The notes beneath the pieces were generated by a model that was not told the DNA's origin, searched no databases, and saw only the letters and a list, made by a program, of their open reading frames with translations. The translations under genes and the position numbers were made by a program. Shown here one piece after another: positions 9,989-29,021 of a stretch of 50,292 bases of DNA. The stretch is from the NCBI GenBank assembly GCA_001767955.1, contig MEMO01000023.1, positions 1-50,292 on the forward strand. The letters run 5' to 3'. Origin of the DNA: Alphaproteobacteria bacterium RIFCSPLOWO2_01_FULL_40_26 (GTDB lineage Bacteria > Pseudomonadota > Alphaproteobacteria > Rickettsiales > UBA1997). Numbering within the stretch: the stretch's first letter is position 1; each line of letters opens with the position of its first letter.

Positions 9989-10405
9989 ATGCAATCCTTT
10001 AAAGCAAAACTCTACCGATTTCTTGGCCTTAAAAGCGTTGTTCAACTTAAACGTTTTCTCATTACCGGCGGCATTTCTACCATCATCAGCTATTTCGTAT
10101 TTCTTGCCAGTCTCCGGTTTTTTCATCTGCATTACATGCTGGCGAATCTTTGCTCTTTTGTTTTGAGCATTATTTTTGCCTATAATTGCAACAAGCATTG
10201 GAGCTTTAGTGGGCCACATCACAAATCGAATCACCTTGCTGAATATCTCGTGGTTTATTTTACCACGCTTGGCGTGAGTATGATCATCCTAAAAATCACC
10301 ATCGATGGTCTTGGCATCATCCCCGAAATCTCCTTCTTCATCTCGCTTTGTTTCACGACCGGGATGAATTTTTTTGGTCTGAAATTTCTTGTCTTCAAGA
10401 AATAA
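9989..10405 (+). CDS. GtrA-family membrane protein
   Basis: RFLITGG, ANLCSF...AYNCNKHWSF, NFFGLKFLVF; about 4 TM segments; ATG at 9989 because the longer ORF runs through the tRNA. Confidence 0.85.
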   Translation: MQSFKAKLYRFLGLKSVVQLKRFLITGGISTIISYFVFLASLRFFHLHYMLANLCSFVLSIIFAYNCNKHWSFSGPHHKSNHLAEYLVVYFTTLGVSMIILKITIDGLGIIPEISFFISLCFTTGMNFFGLKFLVFKK

Positions 10406-12616
10406 AAATTGTGTGCCGTGTTGCAGAAAATCAAAATTATCAATTTTGATTTTTTCTTTTTTAATACAGTCTGGAAGTGCGTATTTTCTAGTCATATTCA
10501 CAATCATATCAAAATCATTTTTGCAAATTTCTGCAATTTTATTGCGCTTAAGAAGCACCAGAATTTTTTTATTTTTTTCGATTATGCATTTTTCTTTTTC
10601 GCAGAAATTTATGGTTTTGAAATAATTTTCACCAAAGTGGTTCATCCAATGTTGACGCTGTTTTGAAGGCCTTAATTTTTTTGAAAATCTCAAACCATTT
10701 TGAGACTGTCGCAAATCCCCATTTCTTACCATTTTTAAACTCGACGAGCCCTTGTAAATCAAGGGTTCAGATTTTTCAGAAAGTTGATTTGCGACATGGC
10801 CATTTCCATCATTAATGGCAAAAAATTTCTGATCTTTTTCAAAAATAATATCCGGTTTTTTGATGAAAAAAATTGTCAAAAATGAAGCGCAAAAAATTGC
10901 AATTCCGGCTAAATGCAATTTTTTTTCAGATTTTTTTTCAGATTTTTTTTCAGATTTTTTTTCAGCAAGGCAAAAAAGCAAAAATCCAAAAGTTGCAATT
11001 ACAAGGCCATGGCTTGGTAGTTGTGGTGTAGTAAGGTTGAAATTGCTGATCTCGGCAATTTTTTTAAGCAGCAAAATTCCCTCATTCATCAAAAGCAGCA
11101 CATATTTTTCCAGACCGAAAGGCATGAAAAAAAACGAAGAAAATCCAAGCGGCATGACAAAAAAGCTGGCTAGGGGAATAGCGAAAACATTGCTTACGAA
11201 ACCAGATAGAGCAAGGCTTTGGAAGCTATGCATCAAAAAGGGTAAAGTGGCGATTTGGATTGCGATGGATAAAAGTGCAATATCAGAAAAATAGCGTAAT
11301 CCGCGAGCTTGGCGAAGCTTGCGATGATAAAAAACTCCAAGCGTGAGAATTGCCGCAAAAGATAGCTGAAAACTAATGCTAAAAACCGCCAGCGGATTGT
11401 ACAAAATCAACAAAAATGCCGCTGTCATTATCGCCCGCTTGGCGTTGATTTTTTCATCAAGAAAAAGCGCTAATAAAACCAAAACAACCATTAAAAATGC
11501 GCGCTGTGCTGGCAATGGCGATCCGGCAATTTTAAGATAAAAATAAGTAGCAAAAATTGCGATAACGGAGGCGATCTTTTTAAGATCAAAATTCAATGCC
11601 AGATATTCACTGCGCGATAGCAGAAAGCGTGTTGCGATAAAAAAAATTGCGCCGGCCAAAGATAGGTGAAAACCGGAAATTGACAGAAGATGCGCCAACC
11701 CGGAATTGCGGATTTTTGCCAGAGTTTCTTTGGAAATTTGTGATTGATCACCAATCAGCAAAGCCGTGGCAATTGCGGCTTCATCGTCTTTTAAACTTGT
11801 TGAAATTCTGGCGCGTATTTTTTCGCGCAAAGCTAAAAACCATTGATCAAAATTGGAGATTTCTCCTTGCCGTAAAATTTTTGCTTCGCCGATGGCAAAG
11901 CCGTAAGCGCCGATTTTTTTCATTTTGGCATCGCGTGCAAAATCGAAATCTTCGGGAAAATCTTTTGGCTTTGGCGGTTGTAACAATGCGCGCAGAGCGA
12001 TTTCATCATTGATTGCAATCGGCGCAGAATTTTTAACCAGATTTATTGAAATTTTTTGCGGTGGATTCGGAAATTTTCCATCATCATTCCAATCAACATT
12101 CTGATAGTTTTTGGCGTAATCGAGAAATTTACGATCAACTTCCTGATAATTTTCCAAATTGACAAAATCTTTGATGATTTTTTTATCAGAGATTTTTTTA
12201 GGTTTTTTCTTTTTTACGATTTTATTGTCGAATTTTGTCCGATATAAAACAGGTTCTGCAATCACTAAATTCAAGCCTTTAAGATGGTTTACCGGATTGT
12301 AAAATTTTTTTATTTCTACGACTTTTCCTGTGATGTCGGCATAAATTTTTCCGCTGATTTCAGTGTGATTGAGAAAAAATTTTTCATAAAAAATCCCGTA
12401 AAAACTGCCGAGTAAAAAGCACAAACATGCAGCACAAATCAGATTGCGAAACAGGATTGCGGCACAACAAAAAAGCGCGATAAAAATCGGCAGTTTTGAT
12501 AAAAAATTTTGCGGATAGGAGAAATAAAAAACTGCGCCGAAACCAAAGAAGACGGGAATCCACAGCCAAAAATTTTTTCTTTCTTGCTCTAAAATTCTGG
12601 TGATTAATAACCCCAC
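10289..12616 (-). CDS. comEC: ComEC/Rec2 DNA-uptake channel with MITE insert and SEKK repeat
   Basis: SGLAHLLSISGFH, AQRAFLM, SFQLSF, NVFAIPL motifs. Confidence 0.9.
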   Translation of the reverse strand: MGLLITRILEQERKNFWLWIPVFFGFGAVFYFSYPQNFLSKLPIFIALFCCAAILFRNLICAACLCFLLGSFYGIFYEKFFLNHTEISGKIYADITGKVVEIKKFYNPVNHLKGLNLVIAEPVLYRTKFDNKIVKKKKPKKISDKKIIKDFVNLENYQEVDRKFLDYAKNYQNVDWNDDGKFPNPPQKISINLVKNSAPIAINDEIALRALLQPPKPKDFPEDFDFARDAKMKKIGAYGFAIGEAKILRQGEISNFDQWFLALREKIRARISTSLKDDEAAIATALLIGDQSQISKETLAKIRNSGLAHLLSISGFHLSLAGAIFFIATRFLLSRSEYLALNFDLKKIASVIAIFATYFYLKIAGSPLPAQRAFLMVVLVLLALFLDEKINAKRAIMTAAFLLILYNPLAVFSISFQLSFAAILTLGVFYHRKLRQARGLRYFSDIALLSIAIQIATLPFLMHSFQSLALSGFVSNVFAIPLASFFVMPLGFSSFFFMPFGLEKYVLLLMNEGILLLKKIAEISNFNLTTPQLPSHGLVIATFGFLLFCLAEKKSEKKSEKKSEKKLHLAGIAIFCASFLTIFFIKKPDIIFEKDQKFFAINDGNGHVANQLSEKSEPLIYKGSSSLKMVRNGDLRQSQNGLRFSKKLRPSKQRQHWMNHFGENYFKTINFCEKEKCIIEKNKKILVLLKRNKIAEICKNDFDMIVNMTRKYALPDCIKKEKIKIDNFDFLQHGTQFLFLEDKKFQTKKIHPGRETKRDEEGDFGDDAKTIDGDF
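10702..10801 (+). mobile_element. Family-A MITE, copy 3, in-frame within comEC
   Basis: 100 bp, 1 substitution; flanks ATTTT/ATTTC; encodes GHVANQLSEKSEPLIYKGSSSLKMVRNGDLRQS. Confidence 0.95.
10919..10966. repeat. 12-bp tandem repeat x4 (TTTTTTTTCAGA) encoding AEKK-SEKK-SEKK-SEKK in ComEC
   Basis: Read directly; each unit holds a T8/A8 run; last unit ends in C. Confidence 0.95.
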
Positions 12617-16958: not shown

Positions 16959-17055
16959 AACCTGTTCAGGTTCTTAGAGTTGCAAGTTTAAAACTGCTTC
17001 ATAACTTGGCCGCGCGCTCGTAAGGGCTGTAAACTTTCATCAATTTTAAATAATC

Positions 17056-17219
17056 TAACCCCAATAACGCTTAAGGAATTATGGCTTAAGTCTACAAACT
17101 CTAAGTAAAACCAATAAACTCCACCACACTGTCACCCCGCACTTGTGTGTGGTGAGATTTGTGATTTAGCTTAGAGTCTGTAAATTTGAATCTGGGTTTC
17201 TTAAACGTTATTGGGGTTA
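17056..17219. mobile_element. Family-D MITE, internally deleted, TA-bounded
   Basis: Terminal inverted repeats TAACCCCAATAACG(C/T)TTAAG; contains truncated TGTCACCCCGCACTTGT hairpin; right arm matches 40-112. Confidence 0.85.
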
Positions 17220-17228
17220 ATCTACACC

Positions 17229-17507
17229 ATGACTATCGCAACTATGTCCCCATTTTTCATCATCGACACATTACAATTTTCGAAAAGACTGCACAAAGCC
17301 GGTCTCGATCAGAAGGTCGCCGAAGAGCTTGCTGAGGCGATTAAAGATACACAAAATCAAACCGTGGAAGGTTTGGCAACGAAACAGGATTTGAAAATTT
17401 TGGAGCAAAAAATTGATATGTTGGAACACAAACTTGTCACAAAAATGTTCCTGATGATGACCGTTGCAGTTGCTGTCATTGCCTGGCTTGATAAAGTCAT
17501 AAATTAG
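17229..17507 (+). CDS. DUF1640/CCDC90-like small coiled-coil membrane protein
   Basis: DTLQFSKRL..AG...AE.LA, LATKQDL, C-terminal TM helix. Confidence 0.75.
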   Translation: MTIATMSPFFIIDTLQFSKRLHKAGLDQKVAEELAEAIKDTQNQTVEGLATKQDLKILEQKIDMLEHKLVTKMFLMMTVAVAVIAWLDKVIN

Positions 17508-19231: not shown

Positions 19232-20317
19232 ATGAAAAAAATCACAGCGGTTTTTTTGACACTTTTTTGGATAAATTTTGCTCATGGTGCCGACACTTAC
19301 AAATTTGATCAAAACCACGTCAATATTGACTGGTCTTGTGGGCATTTTGGTTTTTCCTATCCAACCGGAAAATTTACCAATGCTGATGGGGTAATAATTC
19401 TGGATGAAAAAAATCCGCAGAATAGTTCGGTGAAGGTGACGATTTACACATCTTCGTTAAATACCGGCATTGCCAAATTTGATGAACACTTAAAAAGCGC
19501 GGATTTTCTTGATGTGGCACAATTTCCGGTGGCAAAATTTGAAAGTGCGGCAGTAAAAATTACCGGCAAAAAAACCGCCAAAGTTTCAGGAGAATTAACG
19601 CTTCATGGCATAACCGATCGTGTGGTTCTTGATGTTAGACTTAACAAAATTGGTGTTAATCCTTTCTCGCAGAAAAAAACCATCGGTTTTAGCGCGGAAA
19701 CAACAATCAAGCGTTCAAAATTCGGCATGCAATTTGGTCTGCCGGGAATTTCTGATGAGGTAAAAATTGCTATTGAGGCTGAAGGAATCCTTGTTTCATC
19801 TGATGATTTGCCTTCCGACATTGCCTGGAAAATCATACCGGAAAAAAGTTCAATGAAATTCACAGCGATGCAGGATCAATCCCTGATTTCCGGCTCTTTC
19901 AAAAAATTTGACGGCAAAATTAATTTTGATCCAAAACATTTGCAGGAAAGCAATGTTGAAATCGAAATCGATACCACTTCTGTTGATACTTCTTTTGCTG
20001 AAGCGCTGGATGCAATTCAAAACGCAGCATGGCTTGCAACCAAAGCCTTCCCCAAAGCGATTTTCAAAGCGACAAAATTTATTCATCTTTCCGGCAAAAA
20101 CGAATTTCGCGCTGCTGGAGTTTTAACATTAAAGGGAAAATCCGTGCCGGTTAATCTTGATTTTGTCTTGAAGGAATATGGCAAAACCAACGCCCACATG
20201 ACCGGAACTGCAACGTTAAGACGCAACAATTTTGATATCGGCCACCGCGATCCAAAAAAGGCCAATGGAATTCGTGATGAAATTATAATCGATGTTGAGG
20301 TGTTTGCGCAGAAATAG
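19232..20317 (+). CDS. Periplasmic tandem double-YceI protein
   Basis: Signal peptide; two YceI repeats (H.GFS...DEHLKSADFLD..FP..GELTLHG; WL....FP..GVLTLKG..R..F.IG). Confidence 0.85.
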   Translation: MKKITAVFLTLFWINFAHGADTYKFDQNHVNIDWSCGHFGFSYPTGKFTNADGVIILDEKNPQNSSVKVTIYTSSLNTGIAKFDEHLKSADFLDVAQFPVAKFESAAVKITGKKTAKVSGELTLHGITDRVVLDVRLNKIGVNPFSQKKTIGFSAETTIKRSKFGMQFGLPGISDEVKIAIEAEGILVSSDDLPSDIAWKIIPEKSSMKFTAMQDQSLISGSFKKFDGKINFDPKHLQESNVEIEIDTTSVDTSFAEALDAIQNAAWLATKAFPKAIFKATKFIHLSGKNEFRAAGVLTLKGKSVPVNLDFVLKEYGKTNAHMTGTATLRRNNFDIGHRDPKKANGIRDEIIIDVEVFAQK

Positions 20318-20318
20318 T

Positions 20319-20346
20319 GGCCATATCCAAATCAACTTTCTGAAAA
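20319..20346 (-). mobile_element. Truncated family-A MITE end, opposite orientation
   Basis: GGCCATATCCAAATCAACTTTCTGAAAA versus consensus end GGCCATGTCGCAAATCAACTTTCTGAAAA. Confidence 0.75.
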
Positions 20347-20511
20347 CGTCTCCACAAATTGCTGTTGTAAATGAATCACAAGATTCACTGCAGCAAGAAA
20401 AAACAGATTTCTATAATCTTGTTTCACCTACCCACCTCCAATCCTTCCTCCAAAACTACCACCTCAACCCCAACCTCTCCGATTTCGCGGTTGTTCTTAA
20501 AATTCTGTGTC

Positions 20512-20675
20512 TAGAGCCTGTCTTCAAACTCATCACAGCTCGATTTTTCAGAAATTTTGAGCGACTTTTCGGCAAAATTTTGCTGCTGTATCTGGCATAC
20601 TGCAAAAAATTTTGCCGAAAAACGAGCCAAAATTTGTGGAAAAGCGAGCTGTGATGAGTTTGAAGACAGGCTCTA
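20512..20675. mobile_element. Family-B palindromic MITE (160 bp plus TA duplication), copy 1
   Basis: TA-GAGCCTGTCTTCAAACTCATCACAGCTCG...CGAGCTGTGATGAGTTTGAAGACAGGCTC-TA; near-identical to 36783-36946. Confidence 0.95.
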
Positions 20676-20681
20676 ATCAAC

Positions 20682-20760
20682 AGATCCTGAAACAAGTTCA
20701 GGATGACTGGCTTTAAGATCGGTGTTTCCAAGATGTCATCCTGAACTTGTTTCAGGATCT
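20682..20760. repeat. Family-E REP-like inverted hairpin pair
   Basis: AGATCCTGAAACAAGTTCAGGATGAC ... TGTCATCCTGAACTTGTTTCAGGATCT; also at 32702-32766. Confidence 0.9.
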
Positions 20761-20879
20761 AATTTTCTCGGACACAAGATTTTAAGAACAACCACAAAAA
20801 CCTCTTCAAACTAAAAACCACAATCACTGACGGTGAAGCTAAAACCAGTGGGGAGATCGGATATGAAGAAATCAGCTAA

Positions 20880-20995
20880 AAACGCCAATTCCGGATAAGG
20901 CATCAAGCCAATCTCGATTAGTTCCCTCTCCCACAAGGGGAGAGGGGAGTAGATCGAGAAAAATTTAGGCAGGTTCTTATCCGGAATTGGCGTTT
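20880..20995. mobile_element. Family-C MITE: 20-bp perfect terminal IR with central CCCTCTCCC/GGGAGAGGG hairpin
   Basis: AAACGCCAATTCCGGATAAG / CTTATCCGGAATTGGCGTTT; single copy in this window. Confidence 0.75.
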
Positions 20996-21245
20996 AAAGG
21001 CTGAACAGGGGCAGTTTATTGAGCGGTTTAATGAGGATTTACAAATTTTCGTTCAAGGGAATTTGCGGTATCTAAGAAAAGAGTTTAACAAGGTGAGAAT
21101 CATAAAAAATTTAGTGTCTATTTTTAATCAAAATCCAGAAAATTTCTTTGATTTAAGAATTTTTAATTGAGAAAATTAATCTGAGTTTTAGAGAAAAAAT
21201 TCTTCGTAAAACCAGTTGAAATTTCACCAAAAAAATCGCCTAAAA

Positions 21246-21686
21246 ATGAACATCACAAATAACAAAAAAACATCCGAAAAAAAGTTAGCTGTTCTCAAGA
21301 AAGCCCTCCTTCTATTTCTTTCAGTTTTTCTATTTGTAACGACAGCCGCCTGCTCCTCTGTGTTTAATAAGTTTAGGAAGGGGTTTTATTTTGAGAAATA
21401 TGGAATTGCACAAGAAGCGCAGGAAGCGTTATTAGAAGCGTATCCAATCGGATCAAGTGTTAAGAAATTAGTTAAAATATTAGAAAAAGCAGGATCGAAA
21501 TGTGGAACGATAATTAATCCAGAATTTCAAAATAAATCAGAGTATAAAAATTTGATTTATTGTGATTATTATAAATCAAAATTTCTTTTTTTTTCAGTAG
21601 AGTGGAGAGTTTTAGTTAGATTTACTTTAGAAAAGCCTGACAAAATTTCTTCGATAAAATTACTTAAGTTTTTTCATGTTTTATAA
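21246..21686 (+). CDS. Predicted lipoprotein directly upstream of the RTX gene (candidate immunity/partner protein)
   Basis: Basic N-region, hydrophobic stretch, TAA-C lipobox; very AT-rich; 27 bp from RTX start. Confidence 0.7.
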   Translation: MNITNNKKTSEKKLAVLKKALLLFLSVFLFVTTAACSSVFNKFRKGFYFEKYGIAQEAQEALLEAYPIGSSVKKLVKILEKAGSKCGTIINPEFQNKSEYKNLIYCDYYKSKFLFFSVEWRVLVRFTLEKPDKISSIKLLKFFHVL

Positions 21687-21713
21687 GTTTTTAACCTTAA
21701 ATTCTAAATAACA

Positions 21714-24700
21714 ATGCCAGCTAAAATCGAAATCAAATCACGACAAACAGATTACAATAATTTTCTTCCTAGCGATCCTAATCACATGTATATTGTTTAT
21801 ACAAATGAAGCAGGGGAGAGTAGGGTTTTGAGAGGTAATCCAAAAAATGAAACGTTGTTTGGGGCTTTGTTTGATGACATTTTGATTGTTGATACGAACT
21901 ATGATGAAACCTCTCCAGATTGGGATTCAAGTGGCACACACCCCCACCAACCAATCTTCACCGGCACCGACTCAGAAATGTATTCCCTAATCTCCCTTGC
22001 CATCACCGAAATGAACCGCATCAACTCTCAAGGCTATGATTACAATCTCCCGATTTTCGAAACACTTCTTCCAAACACTCCATGGGCTGAATTAAATAAT
22101 CAAAATAGCAACTCATCTGCGATGGCTTTAGCTAAAGTCATGGGATTTGAAAATCAGATATTGCGATTCATTTATATCAACAATCTCAATGTCCCAGGAT
22201 ATGATTCACCAATTGAACATTCTGTTTTTGAAAAATCAGTTGATTCGCTTTTTAGTGCCATAAGTTCCTCTAGCCAATCCATTAGTAATTTTTTGAATGT
22301 AGCAGCAAACCTTCTCGGAATAAGCATTATTAATGAGAAGGATTTTGCTCTCGAACTGCTAACAAAAGAATTTCTTTCAGCCAATCCGCAGTTTAATGGC
22401 TTAAAGCTAAAACTTAACCTTGTTGAATCATCCCACCTCCAATCCTTCCTCCAAACCTACCACCTCAACTCCAACCTCTCCGATTTTGCAGGAATTATTC
22501 CAAGCGTTATAATCAATGACGGCAACGGAGGAAACTTCAACCTCACAGCCCTTCCAGATTTCTCCAACCTCATCGGCGAAGAACAAGATTCAGTCTGGAA
22601 TAACTTCACCAACCAGTTTCTCGAATCAGCTTTATCTTCCTTCAACTACGACATTGACCAATTCACCAATTTCCTGAACCAGAACAGAATCTCATTCTTC
22701 CAATTTAACTCCGATCTAACCTCATCTCTTGGAGCTGATGGAGATGATGAAGGCATATTCTCCCCCTCCTTCGATTCCTACTTCAACCAGTCAATCCTAA
22801 AAAATCTCAATCTCGACAAAAACCTCTTCAAACTAAAAACCACAATCACTGACGGTGAAGCTAAAACCAGCGGAGAGATTGGATATGAAGAAGTAAGTTA
22901 TAATGAACCGGACTTTACGCAGAGACAAACCACAACAACTCAAACCATTGCAATTCCTGCAGATCAGATTGGTAATGCAATCTACTATCTCGAATCACAA
23001 GATTATAAAAACATCGAAGAATTCGAAAACGACCAGCTAAATCTACAGCAGGAATATGACAGAATCACCAGATGGATGGTGGATGATTTAAAGATTGAAC
23101 AGGGGCAGTTTATTGAGCGGTTTAATGAGGATTTACAAAATTTTATTCAAGAAAACTCGCAGGATTGGCAGGAGAAATTTTCGGATTTTTCGCATAATTA
23201 TGATTTGGAATGGAAGGATTTAACGAGAAATGCTATCTCCAATTGGCACGCCGATGTTGAAGCTTTGCTCGATGAATATGAAGGTATCACCTACTACAAT
23301 CCTGAAACTTATCAAATTTCAGACATCACCGGCACTTTAAAATCAGGGCTTGGTGGAGATTGGGATTTTGATCCATGGAATGAGGATGGTGAAATTCTCG
23401 CTCATGGTTATTGGGAGATAGCACAGGATTTTGAAATTGTTGGGGAGTTTGAGGATTATTGGCGGTGGTTTGATTCCAATTCTGACGGCTTTATTTCGCA
23501 GGAAGAATTTTATGAGGATTGGAATAAATTTATCACCTATCTTGAGGATAATGGCTATTATGAAAGGCTGGAAGCTTTTGATTACAGCGAACTAAGCTAT
23601 AATGGTCCGGAATATTTTGAACAATTCGATGATAATGGTGATGGCTTGATTAATGAATATGAATTTGATTATGGCGGTGAGGATGATTACCGCGAGTGGG
23701 CATTGTGGGATTCTTCTGATGGTTATTGGGCTGATTATAATCCTTACGATGAAATCAATTGGCAGGAAGCTTTAATCATGGCCGATTGGTCGCCATATGA
23801 ATCAATCGAGGAGGCGTTTGATGTTGTTCATAGCGTGAATTTTAGCGAACGCTGGGTTTATGTTGATGAAGATTATGTCGCCTCTGATTATTGGGACATT
23901 GAAGCCGAAGTGAGTTTTGAAACTACTAGTCCCGATTATTCCGAACTTCATTTCAGCAATTTCATTTCCGCTAATTCCTGGGAACTTGAAATCAGCACAG
24001 AATGGAAGCCAAGTGATATCGCATTCGATGTTAATTTTGATGCCAATTTCAATTTTGATGTTGAAGCAATCAACCGCGCTTTCGAACAATTTGCTTATGA
24101 TTTCCTCTACCAACCGCTCGTTGATTATCGCGATTACGACACTGCAAAATTTGAAAATGCCAGCTATAGCCTTGTTGAATCGGACAATGCGGTAATTTCT
24201 GGAGGAGTTGCAAATGAAATCATCATTTCAAAAGCAATATCACTACAAGTCGATGCCGGCGATGGTTTAGATATCGTCAATGGCAGTGAAGGCGCTGACG
24301 AAATTGATGGCGGGAATGGCGATGACATTCTGATTGGTAATGGCGGCAACGATGTTTTGCGTGGTGGTGAGGGTAATGATCTGTTTGTTTTCGATAGCTC
24401 TAATGATGGTGCAAGCCAAGTCATTGATTCCGATGGTGCCATCATCATCGATGAAAAAAGATTGGCAGGAATTGCCATTCAAGATGGCAATTCAGATCGT
24501 TTCATGCTTGGCGCAAAAACATTGCAGATGATTGAAAATGACTTGCTGGTTTCTTACGGAACTAACAACTCAATTCTGATCAAAAATTTTGAGGATAAAA
24601 AATTTGGTATCACTCTTAATCGCAATCCGGAAAGCAATCTAGAACATGTTGAAATCGATGAAGATAATGCAGTGATATTTGATGTTTTGGCCAGCGTTTC

Positions 24701-26078
24701 CGATGTGGACAATGATCAACTAAATCTTGCCGCAATCAATCAGCCGGAAAATGGCAAAGCAGAAATTATTGACGGCAAAATCAAATATACTCCAAACTCC
24801 AATTGGCATGGCTCTGATAGTTTGCGTTATCTCATTTCCGATGGTCGTGGCGGATTTTTGGAAAAAACTTTGAGCATCGCAGTAAATTCAGTAAATGATG
24901 CTTTGGCTATCGATTATTCAATAGGCAATCTCTCGGCTAAAACCACTCAACAATTTATCTTCAAACTCCCGGCTGATTTAATTTCTGACATTGACAGCGA
25001 TGCCCAAATACAAATCAAAAAAGCCGATGGTTCAGATTTGCCATCATGGTTAAGTTTTAATTCGGAAACCAAAGAACTCCGCGGCACTCCACCATCATCA
25101 GCCTATGGTTTACAAAATTTTATCCTCATTGTTTCTGATGCTGAATATGAAGTCAGGAAAAATTTTGGTTTGGTGGTGGATTCCGATTTAACTCTAAAAT
25201 CAGGAGCAAATCTAATTACCGCCAATGAAAATAATGATCCCATCTCTTCTTCAGAGGGAAACAAAGCCGATCTCGTTATTGGCGATGAGCGTGATAATGT
25301 CCTCGAATTTAAATCTGACGGCAATTGGTCTAAGCCAAGTTACTGGGCCTGGAATCCATATACCAACGATTGGGTTAGAATCTTTACAAAAATTAGAAGC
25401 TTTGATGCCTTTGATGGTAAAGGTGGTTATGATATCCTTAATCTTACTGATGGCCATGATACAATCTTTCTTGATGATCAATATTCACAAAATGGCAGTC
25501 AAAGTGGAGCAAGATTAGCTAATATCGAAGAAATCAACGGCTCCGACGGTGATGATATCATTGATCTTTCTTCCCGAAAATACACCTACAACGACATCAC
25601 CCTTAATGGCAATGATGGCAACGATGTTCTCTGGTCAAACGACGGCAACGACATCATCAATGGCGGGGCAGGAAATGATCACATAGTCGGCGGCAGAGGA
25701 GATGATATTCTCAATGGCGATGAAGGAAACGACATCATCAAAGGCCATGACGGCAATGACACAATCGATGGCGGAAAAGATAACGATAAAATCACCGGCG
25801 GATTAGGCGCCGATATTTTAAGCGGAGGCATTGGCAATGATGTCTTTATCTATGAAAACATCGCAGATTCAACCAGAGACAACACCGACCTCATCCTCGA
25901 TTTCATCCAAAACCAGGACAAAATCGATCTCTCCCAAATCGCAGAAATAAACTCCCTTGACGATCTCAACATCATTTTCCAAAACAACCAAACCCTAATT
26001 GAAGCCCAAGACCACGATTTCCAAATCAAACTCAATCAACAGATACAGCTTACGGAGCAGGATTTTTTGTTTAGTTGA
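21714..26078 (+). CDS. Large RTX-type calcium-binding protein, type I secretion substrate
   Basis: GGxGxDxLx nonapeptides in two clusters, cadherin/Ig-like domains (DVDND.L, VNSVND, LPSWLSF), C-terminal D.I.DF...DKIDLS...DFLF signal, two EF-hand-like loops. Confidence 0.92.
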   Translation: MPAKIEIKSRQTDYNNFLPSDPNHMYIVYTNEAGESRVLRGNPKNETLFGALFDDILIVDTNYDETSPDWDSSGTHPHQPIFTGTDSEMYSLISLAITEMNRINSQGYDYNLPIFETLLPNTPWAELNNQNSNSSAMALAKVMGFENQILRFIYINNLNVPGYDSPIEHSVFEKSVDSLFSAISSSSQSISNFLNVAANLLGISIINEKDFALELLTKEFLSANPQFNGLKLKLNLVESSHLQSFLQTYHLNSNLSDFAGIIPSVIINDGNGGNFNLTALPDFSNLIGEEQDSVWNNFTNQFLESALSSFNYDIDQFTNFLNQNRISFFQFNSDLTSSLGADGDDEGIFSPSFDSYFNQSILKNLNLDKNLFKLKTTITDGEAKTSGEIGYEEVSYNEPDFTQRQTTTTQTIAIPADQIGNAIYYLESQDYKNIEEFENDQLNLQQEYDRITRWMVDDLKIEQGQFIERFNEDLQNFIQENSQDWQEKFSDFSHNYDLEWKDLTRNAISNWHADVEALLDEYEGITYYNPETYQISDITGTLKSGLGGDWDFDPWNEDGEILAHGYWEIAQDFEIVGEFEDYWRWFDSNSDGFISQEEFYEDWNKFITYLEDNGYYERLEAFDYSELSYNGPEYFEQFDDNGDGLINEYEFDYGGEDDYREWALWDSSDGYWADYNPYDEINWQEALIMADWSPYESIEEAFDVVHSVNFSERWVYVDEDYVASDYWDIEAEVSFETTSPDYSELHFSNFISANSWELEISTEWKPSDIAFDVNFDANFNFDVEAINRAFEQFAYDFLYQPLVDYRDYDTAKFENASYSLVESDNAVISGGVANEIIISKAISLQVDAGDGLDIVNGSEGADEIDGGNGDDILIGNGGNDVLRGGEGNDLFVFDSSNDGASQVIDSDGAIIIDEKRLAGIAIQDGNSDRFMLGAKTLQMIENDLLVSYGTNNSILIKNFEDKKFGITLNRNPESNLEHVEIDEDNAVIFDVLASVSDVDNDQLNLAAINQPENGKAEIIDGKIKYTPNSNWHGSDSLRYLISDGRGGFLEKTLSIAVNSVNDALAIDYSIGNLSAKTTQQFIFKLPADLISDIDSDAQIQIKKADGSDLPSWLSFNSETKELRGTPPSSAYGLQNFILIVSDAEYEVRKNFGLVVDSDLTLKSGANLITANENNDPISSSEGNKADLVIGDERDNVLEFKSDGNWSKPSYWAWNPYTNDWVRIFTKIRSFDAFDGKGGYDILNLTDGHDTIFLDDQYSQNGSQSGARLANIEEINGSDGDDIIDLSSRKYTYNDITLNGNDGNDVLWSNDGNDIINGGAGNDHIVGGRGDDILNGDEGNDIIKGHDGNDTIDGGKDNDKITGGLGADILSGGIGNDVFIYENIADSTRDNTDLILDFIQNQDKIDLSQIAEINSLDDLNIIFQNNQTLIEAQDHDFQIKLNQQIQLTEQDFLFS

Positions 26079-26097
26079 GTTTAATTGCACCTTCTAA

Positions 26098-26218
26098 GAG
26101 CCTGTCTTAAAACCCACCGCGCCTCGCTTTTCCATAAATTTTGGCTCGTTTTTTGGCAAAATTTTGCCGCTGTATCCGGCATAATCGGGTTGAAACAGGA
26201 TGATTTTAAGATGGGCTC
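26098..26218. mobile_element. Degenerate, internally deleted family-B MITE
   Basis: GAGCCTGTCTTAAAA...TTTTAAGATGGGCTC ends; internal AAATTTTGGCTCGTTTTT and AAAATTTTGCCGCTGTATC match family B. Confidence 0.75.
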
Positions 26219-26644: not shown

Positions 26645-28057
26645 ATGAGTAAGGGAATATTGATCAAATTTGTCATCGTTTTAGTTGTAGCCGCTTTGTC
26701 TTATAGCGTGTTTTGGTTTTTTAAAATGGGGCAGGTTGAAAAGCAGATAAACAAATTTATCAGCGAAAATGGTTCCAATATTTCCGCCGGAGAAATTTCA
26801 GTTTCCGGCTTTCCCTTGATGCAAAAAGTGGTGATTAAAGATTTGAAGTTCACAATCCCCAACGCTTTGTTAGACAAACGTCAAGTGATTATAAAAAATC
26901 TTGAAGCAAAAGCGGGAATTTTTTCTTCTGATTTTGCTGTTGCTTTGGTTGAACAAGTTTCAGTTCAGGATATTGATGGCAGCGTTGCTAATGTTGAATT
27001 TAGCAAAGAGCCGGAAATCATGATCTCGTTTAGTGATGGCAGAATTTCCAAATTTTCTTATAACGATTTTGGATACAGAATTTTTGATGCGGAAAAAAAT
27101 GTGATTTATGCGGCTGCAAATTCCAATGTTGTTATTGATTCAGCAGTTTTGGAAGATGAAAAAATTTCAACTAAAATCAGCGTTGTTGCCAGAGACATTG
27201 AAGGTTTTGGTGTGATAGATGCTTACAAAAATGCTTTAGAAAAAAAGATTATTGATGGTTTGAAAACCGGTGAAATTGCAATCGGTAATGCTACCACTGC
27301 CTTGATTCCACCTCAAATCCAGAATGAGCAGGTTCAAAATAGTTCCTCTGTTGCGACACCAAAAGTTGAAACTCCGGCGCAAGCTGTACAAGCACAACAG
27401 ACAGATGGTCAGCAAAATATTACATCTCAAAATCAAGCTCAAAATCAGGAAACGCCAGCTGCAACAACAGCTGAAAATGCTGAAGTTCCGGCAACCATCG
27501 CCGACAATTCCATCGTAAAGAGCAATTTTACTCTTGATGTTGAATATGTGCTGACGCCAAATAAATCAGAACAACAGGTTCCTTTTGATCCGACACAGAT
27601 TCAGGAAATTCCATTGCAATATGCCAAGCTGGTCAAGATCAATAATTTGGATTTCTCAAATCCGCTTTACAAGATAGTGATCAACGGTGAGATGAATGTT
27701 CTTGCCGATGATAATCTTCCTTCCGGCGGTCTTTCCATAAAGGTGGAAAAAATCGATAATCTTGTCAGTCAACTCACAACCGGTTTCACACAAATGGCTG
27801 AAAAAGATAAGACGGTAGTGAGTGCCATTACCGATGTTCAATCATCCGATCTTGCTTCGGCCGGAAATATTTCCGATGATTCTTATCAGGTTTTCTTATC
27901 CAGAATTTCTGCCAATCTTTCTGTTATTGCCAAAGAATTGGCTGCCAAAAATCCGGTAAGCAAGGAAGACGTTGCGCAGTTTGATGTTAGAAGAGAAAAG
28001 AATCTCGATTTTCTGATCAACGAAACCACCATTCGCGAAGTTCTTGGAAAGTTTTAG
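26645..28057 (+). CDS. Hypothetical membrane-anchored periplasmic protein (DUF2125-like N-terminus)
   Basis: N-terminal TM, Y..FW, SGFP motif, Q/A/T-rich linker. Confidence 0.6.
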   Translation: MSKGILIKFVIVLVVAALSYSVFWFFKMGQVEKQINKFISENGSNISAGEISVSGFPLMQKVVIKDLKFTIPNALLDKRQVIIKNLEAKAGIFSSDFAVALVEQVSVQDIDGSVANVEFSKEPEIMISFSDGRISKFSYNDFGYRIFDAEKNVIYAAANSNVVIDSAVLEDEKISTKISVVARDIEGFGVIDAYKNALEKKIIDGLKTGEIAIGNATTALIPPQIQNEQVQNSSSVATPKVETPAQAVQAQQTDGQQNITSQNQAQNQETPAATTAENAEVPATIADNSIVKSNFTLDVEYVLTPNKSEQQVPFDPTQIQEIPLQYAKLVKINNLDFSNPLYKIVINGEMNVLADDNLPSGGLSIKVEKIDNLVSQLTTGFTQMAEKDKTVVSAITDVQSSDLASAGNISDDSYQVFLSRISANLSVIAKELAAKNPVSKEDVAQFDVRREKNLDFLINETTIREVLGKF

Positions 28058-29021
28058 ATCTGTATTAGCGTGGGCCGAGAGAATTCTCGGCAATATCGAT
28101 AATAACAGGCTTGATGCGTTGATTTTGCTTTCCCACATCACTTCTTTTTCCAAAGAAAAGATAATTTTTAATCCTGATTTTAAGTTAAATTACGACCAAA
28201 AAGAAAAGTTTTTTGAGCTTGTTGAGCGCAGAGTAAAGCATGAGCCGATTTCTCATCTTATTGGCAAAAGAGAATTTTTTGGTGCAGATTTTTCAGTCAG
28301 TAAAGATGTTCTCGATCCAAGACCGGATTCAGAAATTTTGATCGAGGCGATTTTGAAAAAATTTCCAGACCGCAATCAAAAATTGAAAATTGTTGAACTC
28401 GGAGTTGGTTCGGGATGTTTAATTATTACCTTGCTTACAGCCTTTAAATCAGCCTGTGGAACCGGAATTGATATCTCCAATGCTGCACTCGAAATTTGCA
28501 AAAAAAACGCCGCAAAATTTGGAATCACAAAACGTTTAACTTTACTAAAGTCTAATCTTTTCAACCAAATTCCAAACAACGAAGCACGAAGCACGAAGCA
28601 CGAAGCACGAAAATTTGACCTCATCATCTCAAACCCCCCTTACATCCCAAGCGATGACATCAAAAATTTACAGCCGGAAATTGTCTTATTTGAACCAAGA
28701 ATTGCTCTTGATGGCGGAAAGGATGGTTTGGATTTTTATCACAAAATTGCAGCAAAAGCAGAAAAATTTTTAAACCAGAATGGGACTGTCGCAAATCCCC
28801 AGTTCCTGCCATTTTTAAACGCGATGAGCCCTTGTAAATCAAGGGTTCAGACTTTGCAGAAAGTTGATTTGCTACATGGCCAGAATGGAAAAATTTTTCT
28901 TGAGATTGGTTATGGCCAAAAAGAAAAAGTGATTGAAATTTTTACTAAAAAGGGATTTTTGTTTATCGAAGCAAGCCTTGATTTGGCTGGCATTACGCGT
29001 GTTTTAGAATTTTCATGTTAA
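28044..29021 (+). CDS. prmC: Release-factor glutamine methyltransferase with two repeat-derived inserts
   Basis: EPISHLIG.REF, VLDPRPDSE, ELGVGSG, SNPPYI, EP..ALDGG.DGL, EIGYGQ, DLAG..R. Confidence 0.95.
   Translation: MESFRSVLAWAERILGNIDNNRLDALILLSHITSFSKEKIIFNPDFKLNYDQKEKFFELVERRVKHEPISHLIGKREFFGADFSVSKDVLDPRPDSEILIEAILKKFPDRNQKLKIVELGVGSGCLIITLLTAFKSACGTGIDISNAALEICKKNAAKFGITKRLTLLKSNLFNQIPNNEARSTKHEARKFDLIISNPPYIPSDDIKNLQPEIVLFEPRIALDGGKDGLDFYHKIAAKAEKFLNQNGTVANPQFLPFLNAMSPCKSRVQTLQKVDLLHGQNGKIFLEIGYGQKEKVIEIFTKKGFLFIEASLDLAGITRVLEFSC
28580..28611. repeat. Heptamer tandem repeat (CGAAGCA)x4.5 inside prmC
   Basis: Read directly; translates as EARSTKHEARK. Confidence 0.95.
28782..28881 (+). 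mobile_element. Family-A MITE, copy 4, in-frame within prmC, read on the opposite element strand
   Basis: 100 bp, 8 substitutions, no indels; AGAAT/AGAAT duplication; QN-[GTVANPQFLPFLNAMSPCKSRVQTLQKVDLLHG]-QN. Confidence 0.95.

Follow-up and report, generated by a model that had tools for sequence, protein, structure and literature searches.

RTX proteins whose N-termini are preceded by a partner gene (FrpC/FrpD, ApxIVA and many unnamed examples) have posed a question of function for decades. The locus considered here resembles the FrpD-FrpC/FrpA system of Neisseria meningitidis in having an upstream exported partner and an RTX substrate of a type I secretion system (T1SS). Neisseria loci also carry extra frp cassettes. 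In the portions available to us, the literature describes N-terminal variability (PMC5472700), a further likeness, treats FrpD-FrpC mainly as an adhesin (PMC5472700, PMC7078468) and also hypothesises an antibacterial effector–immunity pair (PMC6759196); an antibacterial role is hypothesised in these portions, and no demonstration for a T1SS RTX protein was found there. The present locus differs from the Frp loci in that neither the RTX protein nor its partner has a Pfam match to the Frp families, the partner is probably not lipidated, and the two slots are filled in the genus by numerous enzyme folds and partner families that are unrelated to one another.

According to the available part of its description, the Stenotrophomonas pair Smlt3024/Smlt3025 shows that N-terminal domains of the RTX type can act as antibacterial toxins in the periplasm, the immunity protein being FrpD-like (PMC6759196). 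Unlike the present locus, it is delivered by a T4SS and arrays are absent from that description; its likeness to the N-terminus here is by description only. The CDI (CdiA-CT/CdiI, TpsC cassettes), MafB and Rhs arrays, as far as the accessible text goes, share with this locus a constant carrier, a variable toxin, a cognate immunity gene and truncated extra modules with carrier homology (PMC5472700, PMC3482391). They use T5SS/T6SS, whereas a T1SS is predicted here, and the arrangement is mirrored: the putative toxin is N-terminal, the putative immunity gene lies upstream, and displaced modules lie upstream and are 3'-truncated. Where the classical definition of a polymorphic toxin places the toxin domain at the C-terminus, the variable domain here is N-terminal; polymorphic-toxin logic would thus be reversed when the secretion signal is C-terminal.

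Two further groups are comparable at the level of single domains. The permuted NlpC/P60 proteins Tox-Act1, TseH, DUF4105 and DUF3750 have, like the N-terminal domain here, the His first and the nucleophile last, and TseH is also a fold match; Tox-Act1 is reported, in the part available, as a phospholipase toxic in the periplasm (PMC12994826). This group differs from the present family, in which the nucleophile is mostly Ser, the domain is fused to RTX repeats rather than linked to a T6SS, and the putative immunity gene lies upstream. The Lipocone (Min-Wnt) proteins include a toxin domain N-terminal to RTX repeats, with periplasmic BamE-like immunity proteins, in an account that is one sentence long in the available text and does not mention swapping, arrays or a carrier there (PMC12419801). 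The partner here has helices followed by three strands, with BamE among its weak matches (Z 4.9).

The locus and its constant carrier

In the window (the whole analysed stretch of 50,292 nt), the locus of this groundwater bacterium consists of a small exported-type gene (21246-21686, forward strand) and an RTX gene of 1454 aa (21714-26078, forward strand). The host genome looks Rickettsiales-like (1.44 Mb, two VirB4 paralogues), and the host appears to belong to a Rickettsiales-like aquatic genus. A search for an ATP/ADP translocase detected none, and its control was not detected either. A promoter scan of 20250-21800 found no site scoring above shuffles.

The RTX protein carries a constant acidic block at aa about 234-830 (22415-24203), which shares 32-53% identity with proteins from G006, G022, G067 and P0002; its EF-hand-like motifs are weak, with matches below the cut-off. 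The remainder (24204-26078) contains RTX nonapeptide repeats, Ig/cadherin-like domains and a serralysin-type C-terminus (PF00353 with E 2e-32, PF17963, PF17892, PF05345). The Gly-Asp-rich nonapeptide repeats near the C-terminus reach 111 bits for PF00353 against a cut-off of 23, so that the protein is predicted to be a type I-secreted substrate. Exporter genes were found on another contig of the genome (C22), unlinked to the locus: the PrtD-type match is over the cut-off, while the TolC- and HlyD-type matches are below it, the latter cut by the contig end. No Asp-Pro self-processing motif (DP-L-x-L-D) was found by eye in the RTX translation; the motif occurs in other RTX genes of the same genome and genus, so that the likeness to FrpC self-processing lies in the sister carriers.

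Among 1531 candidates, no shorter protein (30-798 aa) bearing the carrier block was found. A search of the ESM Atlas with the block gave no usable match, and when genome and metagenome collections were scanned by pattern, nothing beyond the already known G022 and G006 loci came up.

The N-terminal domain and its exported partner

The variable N-terminal domain (aa 1-190; 21714-22283, forward strand; 72 homologues; model pLDDT 91.5) is predicted to be a papain-like enzyme of the permuted NlpC/P60 type. The sequence-only reading had proposed a permuted papain-like fold with Ser in place of Cys, and the fold searches agree with it: they return permuted papain-like enzymes, and both motifs on which it relied are present, H-M-Y-I-V-Y at aa 24-29 and NSNS at aa 131-134. 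The best Foldseek match was TseH (E 0.021, prob 0.96), with none at E 0.001 or better. In the VIA search, seven of the eight top rows were permuted NlpC/P60 proteins with moderate Z-scores of 4.8-7.7, that is, below 8 and within the range that the tool calls common; these included CLN5 (Z 7.7, rmsd 3.4, 136 aligned) and TseH (Z 7.0, rmsd 4.5, 131 aligned). ESM feature neighbours, which serve as leads only, were DUF3750 (0.87) and TseH (0.86). Neither Pfam at E 0.5 nor NCBIfam gave a family name.

The His that precedes the predicted nucleophile, His24, is kept in 67 of 68 aligned homologues. Instead of the catalytic Cys expected of permuted NlpC/P60 papain-like enzymes, Ser132 is present here, and 60 of 63 aligned homologues have Ser (51) or Cys (9) at this position; the C33 paralogue is one natural member with Cys. 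Asp69 and both flanking Asn are conserved as well. Tox-Act1 and TseH, taken as analogues, point to envelope lipids or lipoproteins as the probable target.

Exchange of Cys for Ser often inactivates papain-like enzymes. It could accordingly be argued that the Ser version has lost catalysis and works through binding, only the Cys versions being enzymes, and the activity of natural papain-like families with Ser is called speculative in the accessible part of PMC10318531. We consider this unlikely, given that Ser is the majority residue and is retained together with His24, Asp69 and both Asn, and that the same partner family accompanies the Ser and Cys versions. The natural Ser/Cys variants within one papain-like family offer material for the study of serine catalysis.

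The small upstream gene (GC about 0.32) encodes a 146-aa protein with a hydrophobic leader, modelled as helices and then three strands (pLDDT 86.2), and is predicted to be the immunity protein. It had been read as an AT-rich lipoprotein gene abutting the RTX start. The AT-richness and the position hold, with a gap of 27 nt, but lipidation is doubtful: T-A-A-C36 departs from a canonical lipobox, a Cys at that place is missing from all 11 aligned partner homologues, and most leaders end in A-x-A. The product is better termed an exported protein. Neither Pfam nor NCBIfam names it, and Foldseek on its model gave nothing clear. In VIA, 2pww scored best (Z 6.0); like it, BamE (4.9) and BtiO, an immunity protein (4.6), fall within the range that is common for the tool. 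FrpD (5edj) stood at rank 29 (Z 3.5, rmsd 3.5, 64 aligned). A database search with the partner family gave four matches, and outside the genus the family was not found in 400 genomes drawn from the phylum.

The modelling of the complex, which had been suggested as a check, placed the partner on the His24/Ser132 site with a score of 0.77, against 0.00 for the best of three controls. Among solved pairs, 116 of 157 attain the mark used for this score, as do 2 of 215 mismatched pairs. At least 94% of contacts are shared between runs, with partner pLDDT of at least 83, and the modelled interface takes in residues 24 and 131-133 of the N-terminus. The model puts the last five residues of the partner into the active site.

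Differing N-termini and the upstream remnant

Over aa 226-1454, the carrier shares 32-54% identity with those of G006:C22, G067:C15 and P0002 in each segment tested, whereas aa 1-225 have no real match in these carrier relatives. The N-termini found on this carrier are of five unrelated types, and all four types with genomic context have their own upstream partner: besides the small gene here, DUF5625 (G006, G022:C244), a TPR protein (G022:C80) and a small membrane protein (G067). These differing pairs bear out the proposal of swappable partner and N-terminus units on a constant carrier, and they exclude the outcome that had been named as refuting it, a single N-terminus in all homologues. Searches based on the carrier alignment A1 reach slightly less far because it omits P0002. 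Profile comparison of the N-terminal domain here with the His/Cys type of G006 gave no match (prob 0.1), and the two are therefore counted separately, although both may be papain-like. No paper on DUF5625 and immunity was found.

Seven of the 44 genomes of the genus have the N-terminus type of this locus, at eight loci in all and each time just behind the same small-gene family, and eight of the nine copies of that family precede it. Across the genus, 32 hand-picked pairs comprised 17 partner families and 16 N-terminus families. Wherever two pairs agreed in the partner family (32 comparisons), they agreed in the N-terminus family too, and three comparisons shared the N-terminus only. This coupling was reached by 0 of 5000 permutations, a test that overstates because the pairs were picked by eye from related genomes. 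A hydrophobic leader was found in 31 of the 32 partners. The lipase N-terminus family has two unrelated partner families, and one pair has HlyC upstream in place of an immunity gene. The 32 pairs leave out RTX ORFs that start beyond the sequence or contig examined (G001:C4, G016:C2, G018, G002 and the 5765-aa ORF of G067), as well as two in G065 whose start or partner is not clear. Pfam gave no match for most genus N-termini; it recognised Peptidase_M23 and Lipase_3 (at or near the cut-off) and DUF6973, with sub-threshold matches to phage-lysozyme, SLT and microcin V. By these matches, the recognised N-termini would aim mostly at the cell envelope.

Upstream of the small gene lies a broken copy of the carrier. 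Directly 3' of the yceI stop, a 29-nt fragment of a genome-wide repeat (20318-20346; 44 merged sites on 21 contigs) shows where the remnant was cut at its 5' side. The next 67 nt (20347-20413, forward strand), single-copy in the genome and different from the live RTX gene, are open in the remnant frame and likely represent the final 22 codons of an N-terminal allele that differed and has been lost. They fit the junction in the G067 allele best, but weakly (61 of 5000 shuffles, six comparisons); a search of the rest of this genome found neither the G067-type N-terminus nor its partner. Block 1 (20414-20488, forward strand) copies 22415-22489, the start of the constant carrier, with 88% identity and differs by three synonymous and five non-synonymous codons. 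It is followed by nested palindromic, MITE/RPE-like repeats (20489-20793), a 164-bp element (20512-20675) within an element of about 143 bp, with inverted arms I1, I3 and I4 and with 88 and 102 genomic sites; they replace 326 nt of carrier sequence, and free copies of both elements are present elsewhere in the genome. Block 2 (about 20794-20881, forward strand) copies about 22816-22903 with 92% identity, with three synonymous codons and one non-synonymous codon changed. A 116-bp palindromic repeat (20880-20995; arms I6, 78 genomic sites) replaces about 190 nt of carrier. Block 3 (20993-21071, forward strand; 86% identity to 23087-23165) was absent from the sequence-only reading, and the frame stops shortly after it. 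The gaps and the 29 nt after yceI are thus palindromic repeats with 44-102 sites in the genome, those in the gaps bringing stop codons. A half copy of the 164-bp repeat also lies 3' of the RTX stop (26097-26183).

The block matches lie well outside what chance would give (BLASTN E from 1e-19 to 1e-29). All three blocks are in one reading frame (about 1 in 9 by chance), which we do not use as evidence because stops fall between them. The earlier statement that the remnant matches the RTX gene and differs just upstream is upheld by the three blocks and by the upstream peptide as it was quoted, the unique variant sequence being limited to the 67 nt. The differences in block 2 were also said to be mostly synonymous; this is so, but over the three blocks there are 8 synonymous and 13 non-synonymous changes among 77 codons, which makes the argument weak. 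Given these short, repeat-cut blocks and the 67 unique bases, the remnant is debris, a headless scar rather than a usable silent cassette. It likely marks an earlier N-terminus swap.

It should be noted that single contigs in three public runs, which may include the source sample, run from yceI across block 1 (19800-20518) and from the tail of block 3 across the RTX N-terminus (21016-22845), with zero differences. No RNA run was listed as carrying the sequence. The repeat-filled middle of the remnant was not bridged with 31 letters on both sides in these runs. In a further run, X9, a contig joining 23095 back to 21002 (44 shared letters, depth 4.5) is a probable graph artefact, being absent from the other three runs.

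The remnant might instead be debris of a simple duplication of part of the same allele, jumbled by palindromic repeats and recording no swap. The shortness of the unique sequence, the deletion ends at repeats and the excess of non-synonymous changes would suit such an origin. We nevertheless find it improbable: the similarity ends exactly at the family-wide switch point between variable and constant sequence, and the 22 codons contain no stop, keep the frame and show a weak fit to another allele's junction. Moreover, truncated or headless carrier copies recur upstream in seven other genomes at 81-99% identity to the live gene. Duplicated carrier segments of 278-784 nt were found in G001, G017, G033, G065 (two contigs), G023 and G022; G022:C80 and G017:C2 have headless remnants laid out as here, and whole displaced modules are present in G001, G033 and G065, with partner genes kept as orphans in G033. 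The displaced modules with carrier homology lie upstream of the live genes. No description of such upstream arrays or of the N-terminus repertoire was found in the literature, of which the supplements of PMC3482391, PMC12419801 and PMC12994826 may list such architectures.

Proposed system and competing explanations

Based on the above results, we consider it probable that the locus is a type I-secreted antibacterial toxin–immunity system with an N-terminal toxin, renewed by recombination in the carrier, with older heads stranded upstream. The small partner would wait in the periplasm, its C-terminal strand predicted to plug the active site of the N-terminus. An incoming piece composed of a partner gene, a new N-terminus and carrier would cross over in the constant carrier block, the likely recombination substrate, to give the live gene; the crossover falls within the carrier because the T1SS signal must remain C-terminal. 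The displaced head, left with a truncated carrier, could not be secreted, while its partner gene may continue to give protection. Deletions ending at palindromic repeats may later have removed both the displaced head and its partner from this locus.

A broader proposal seems to us evenly balanced for and against. It is that such loci form a mirror-image class of T1SS polymorphic toxins, with N-terminal warheads (papain-like, lipase, M23, lysozyme-like and pore-former-like), upstream exported immunity genes and displacement that stacks orphan modules upstream. This class would be rich in the Rickettsiales-like aquatic genus, would include a serine-nucleophile NlpC/P60 family on a new acidic carrier without the FrpC self-processing module, and would recast FrpC/FrpD-type loci generally as antibacterial weapons. 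At least 16 N-terminus families, each matched by its partners, are available in the genus, and the folds of several can be recognised as attacking the envelope; with these at hand, the antibacterial hypothesis is testable by ordinary toxin-rescue assays.

A variable adhesin, with the small protein as surface anchor for the RTX N-terminus and with N-termini that vary the binding target, is distinctly less probable than the antibacterial system. The carrier does have Ig/cadherin-like domains, FrpD is described in the available text as binding the FrpC N-terminus tightly in a proposed adhesin pair (PMC5472700, PMC7078468), and a binding model by itself fits an anchor as well as an inhibitor. Such a role is difficult to reconcile with the hydrolase folds among the swapped domains (M23, lipase, papain-like), with a modelled partner that covers the catalytic residues, with a partner family most of whose members have a cleavable A-x-A leader without an anchoring Cys, and with 17 unrelated partner families.

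Effectors directed at a protist, another eukaryotic host or a predator, the partner guarding the producer's envelope or acting as a chaperone, are the least probable: the Rickettsiales-like genome, the hlyC-like acyltransferases that adjoin RTX genes and the fact that any membrane could be a substrate for permuted NlpC/P60 lipid enzymes would allow them, but peptidoglycan-type hydrolases occupy the same slot (M23, with weak lysozyme and SLT matches), dedicated exported partner genes, with orphans kept in G033, suit inter-bacterial conflict, and relatives of such toxins aimed at hosts usually lack an immunity gene according to the available part of PMC12419801. The antibacterial reading suggests interbacterial conflict in a lineage that, by its inferred taxonomy, is related to host-associated Rickettsiales.

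Variable N-termini on a shared RTX carrier

In the window, yceI (stop at 20317) is followed by a broken carrier copy (the remnant), a 146-aa partner gene (21246–21686) and a 1454-aa RTX gene (21714–26078), whose product combines RTX repeats and Ig/cadherin-like domains with a serralysin-type end. The sequence-only reading had proposed an N-terminally polymorphic RTX system here, which is borne out: the constant block carries unrelated N-termini, each with its own upstream gene where the context is known. The block after aa 234 was present in three of 61 genomes (the window's own, G006 and G022) and in five of 44 genus genomes, adding G067 and a fragment in G061, as well as in the database protein P0002. 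Against three full-length relatives, aa 226–1454 were 32–54% identical in each segment, and aa 1–225 gave no real match. The six N-termini compared represented five unrelated types, and each type with known context had a specific upstream gene (DUF5625, a TPR protein, a small membrane protein or the window's partner family). The window's type also occurs on other carriers: one on C33, another contig in this genome (Cys for Ser, partner 34% identical), and carriers of the self-processing type in G001, G011 and G017. The acidic carrier block (22415–24203) had no family and no Atlas match, and its relatives were few. As a calcium-dependent linker, it may take the place of the self-processing module.

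RTX repeats were found in 19 of the 44 genus genomes. The N-terminus profile detected eight loci in seven of the 44, two of them broken (G023, G064), each directly 3′ of the window's small-gene family. This N-terminus accompanies eight of nine small-gene copies, the ninth (G033) being an orphan within an array. Thirty-two pairs of upstream gene and N-terminus, hand-picked by eye from 20 fetched stretches and earlier loci, comprised 17 partner and 16 N-terminus families. The same partner family came with the same N-terminus family in 32/32 comparisons, and the N-terminus alone was common to three. The observed coupling was matched by 0/5000 permutations, a figure inflated by relatedness and hand-picking. 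A hydrophobic leader was found in 31 of 32 partners, the exception being an HlyC gene. Nameable N-termini among the genus loci were M23 peptidase, lipase and DUF6973, with weak matches to lysozyme, SLT and microcin V.

The same genome contains a second RTX island (C33, 1–19979, minus strand, stretches L001 and L055; C22, L002). On C33, a 498-aa exported gene precedes a 5082-aa RTX gene with a lipase-like N-terminus and an Asp-Pro motif, followed by a partner homologue and a papain-like domain in its Cys version. C22, which may continue C33, carries an RTX end, an outer-membrane-type gene, and hlyC-like, tolC, prtD and hlyD-like genes.

Predicted enzyme and partner

Among 72 homologues of the N-terminal domain, His24 (67/68) and Asp69 (69/72) were conserved, and positions 131–133 read Asn-Ser/Cys-Asn (Ser 51/63, Cys 9/63). 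The domain model (pLDDT 91.5) matched TseH in Foldseek (E 0.021). The structure-comparison search VIA returned CLN5, TseH, PPPDE deSUMOylase, Aichivirus 2A, PLAAT4, a Bacillus peptidase and YiiX (Z 7.7–4.8). With moderate scores, the matches converge on one group, in line with the permuted papain-like fold suggested earlier. A member of this group, Tox-Act1, is described in PMC12994826 as a periplasm-toxic phospholipase, and serine-bearing papain-like families such as DUF3750, of unproven activity, appear in PMC10318531. Most of the homologues (P0003–P0074) are short or lack RTX repeats (at least eight repeat motifs in five), which means that other carriers use this domain too.

The partner model (pLDDT 86.2) comprises helices and then three strands; BamE and the immunity protein BtiO are among its weak fold matches. 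Its homologues mostly have an A-x-A leader and no Cys, which makes the initial lipoprotein label doubtful. The sequence-only reading had also named a modelled complex as a check. The complex scored 0.77 versus 0.00 for the best of three controls; the mark was reached by 116/157 solved and 2/215 mismatched pairs, counts that hold only roughly given our own alignments. At least 94% of contacts agreed between runs, with partner pLDDT of at least 83. The modelled interface takes in His24, residues 131–133 and the last five partner residues, which supports binding of the partner at the predicted active site. Among solved structures, the fold searches turned up no comparable complex.

In public run X5, one low-depth contig (2.5 of 21.5) has a one-base insertion at 21679, near the partner gene end, either an error or a low-frequency variant.

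Proposed displacement arrays and the remnant

Carrier segments were duplicated in tandem (81–99% identity over 278–784 nt) in G001:C18, G017:C2, G033:C70, G065:C10 and C33, G023:C7 and G022:C80. G001 and G065 contain serial units of a partner and an N-terminus with truncated carrier, and the layout of the window recurs in G022:C80, where a housekeeping gene is followed by a headless carrier remnant, a partner gene and an RTX gene. An incoming module crossing over within the carrier would produce exactly such arrays, the mirror image of the CDI and MafB cassettes outlined in PMC5472700. Upstream of RTX arrays, L051:12084–14169 (G065:C10) and L053:4720–7646 (G006:C6) hold series of small genes for exported or lipoprotein-like products with no toxin domain after them, possibly strings of orphan immunity genes; five tested genes had no Pfam match.

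The remnant consists of three blocks 88, 92 and 86% identical to the RTX gene in a single common frame. In the two intervals between them, palindromic repeats with 78–102 genomic sites stand exactly in place of 326 and about 190 nt of the RTX gene, and at its 5′ side the remnant is bounded by a piece of a further repeat (44 sites). The remnant is a real carrier copy, but its reading as a silent variant allele was downgraded to a scar, because repeats replace gene sequence and only 67 nt are unique. The claim of mostly synonymous differences, made for block 2, holds there (three versus one); over all 77 codons the changes are 8 synonymous and 13 non-synonymous. Contigs of three public runs reproduced both remnant ends in context without differences, the repeat-filled middle not being strictly bridged. 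Similarity starts where family members switch to shared carrier sequence. The remnant's 22 variant codons best fit the G067 allele junction (61/5000 shuffles, in six comparisons), which hints weakly at a lost head of another N-terminus type.

Known systems and genome setting

The locus appears to work as polymorphic toxin systems do; the observation is genuine, and the initial interpretation stands once the remnant is taken as a scar. An antibacterial toxin–immunity mechanism is probable. In classical polymorphic toxin systems the toxin is C-terminal, and the locus is not of that class; its membership in the FrpC/FrpD family is not established. Published texts describe a variable FrpC N-terminus (PMC5472700) and RTX repeats carrying Min-Wnt domains (PMC12419801). 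Under the terms searched, the first 300,000 characters of PMC3482391, a large survey of polymorphic toxins, had no passage on such systems. The literature covered, with subscription papers and supplements outside its scope, described neither N-terminal displacement arrays on T1SS carriers nor this family.

The genome has 1.44 Mb in 38 contigs (97.5% complete), and the window spans one of these, C23, in full. Its two VirB4 paralogues, the small genome size and 40% GC suggest a Rickettsiales-like alphaproteobacterium, perhaps of the Gamibacteraceae (PMC9352585). Public runs containing the window's sequence are labelled groundwater or soil metagenome.

Several families of ORF-embedded repeats are present in the genome. 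Repeats with 49–89 genomic matches (761–877, 10684–10806, 28567–28617, 28768–28895) lie within long open housekeeping ORFs (114–2444, ComEC-like 10289–12616, PrmC-like 28044–29021, labelled from their translations), resembling in-frame Rickettsia palindromic elements. Another repeat (17050–17221, 55 matches) lies directly before a small CCDC90-like ORF (17211–17507; E 4e-4, below the cut-off).
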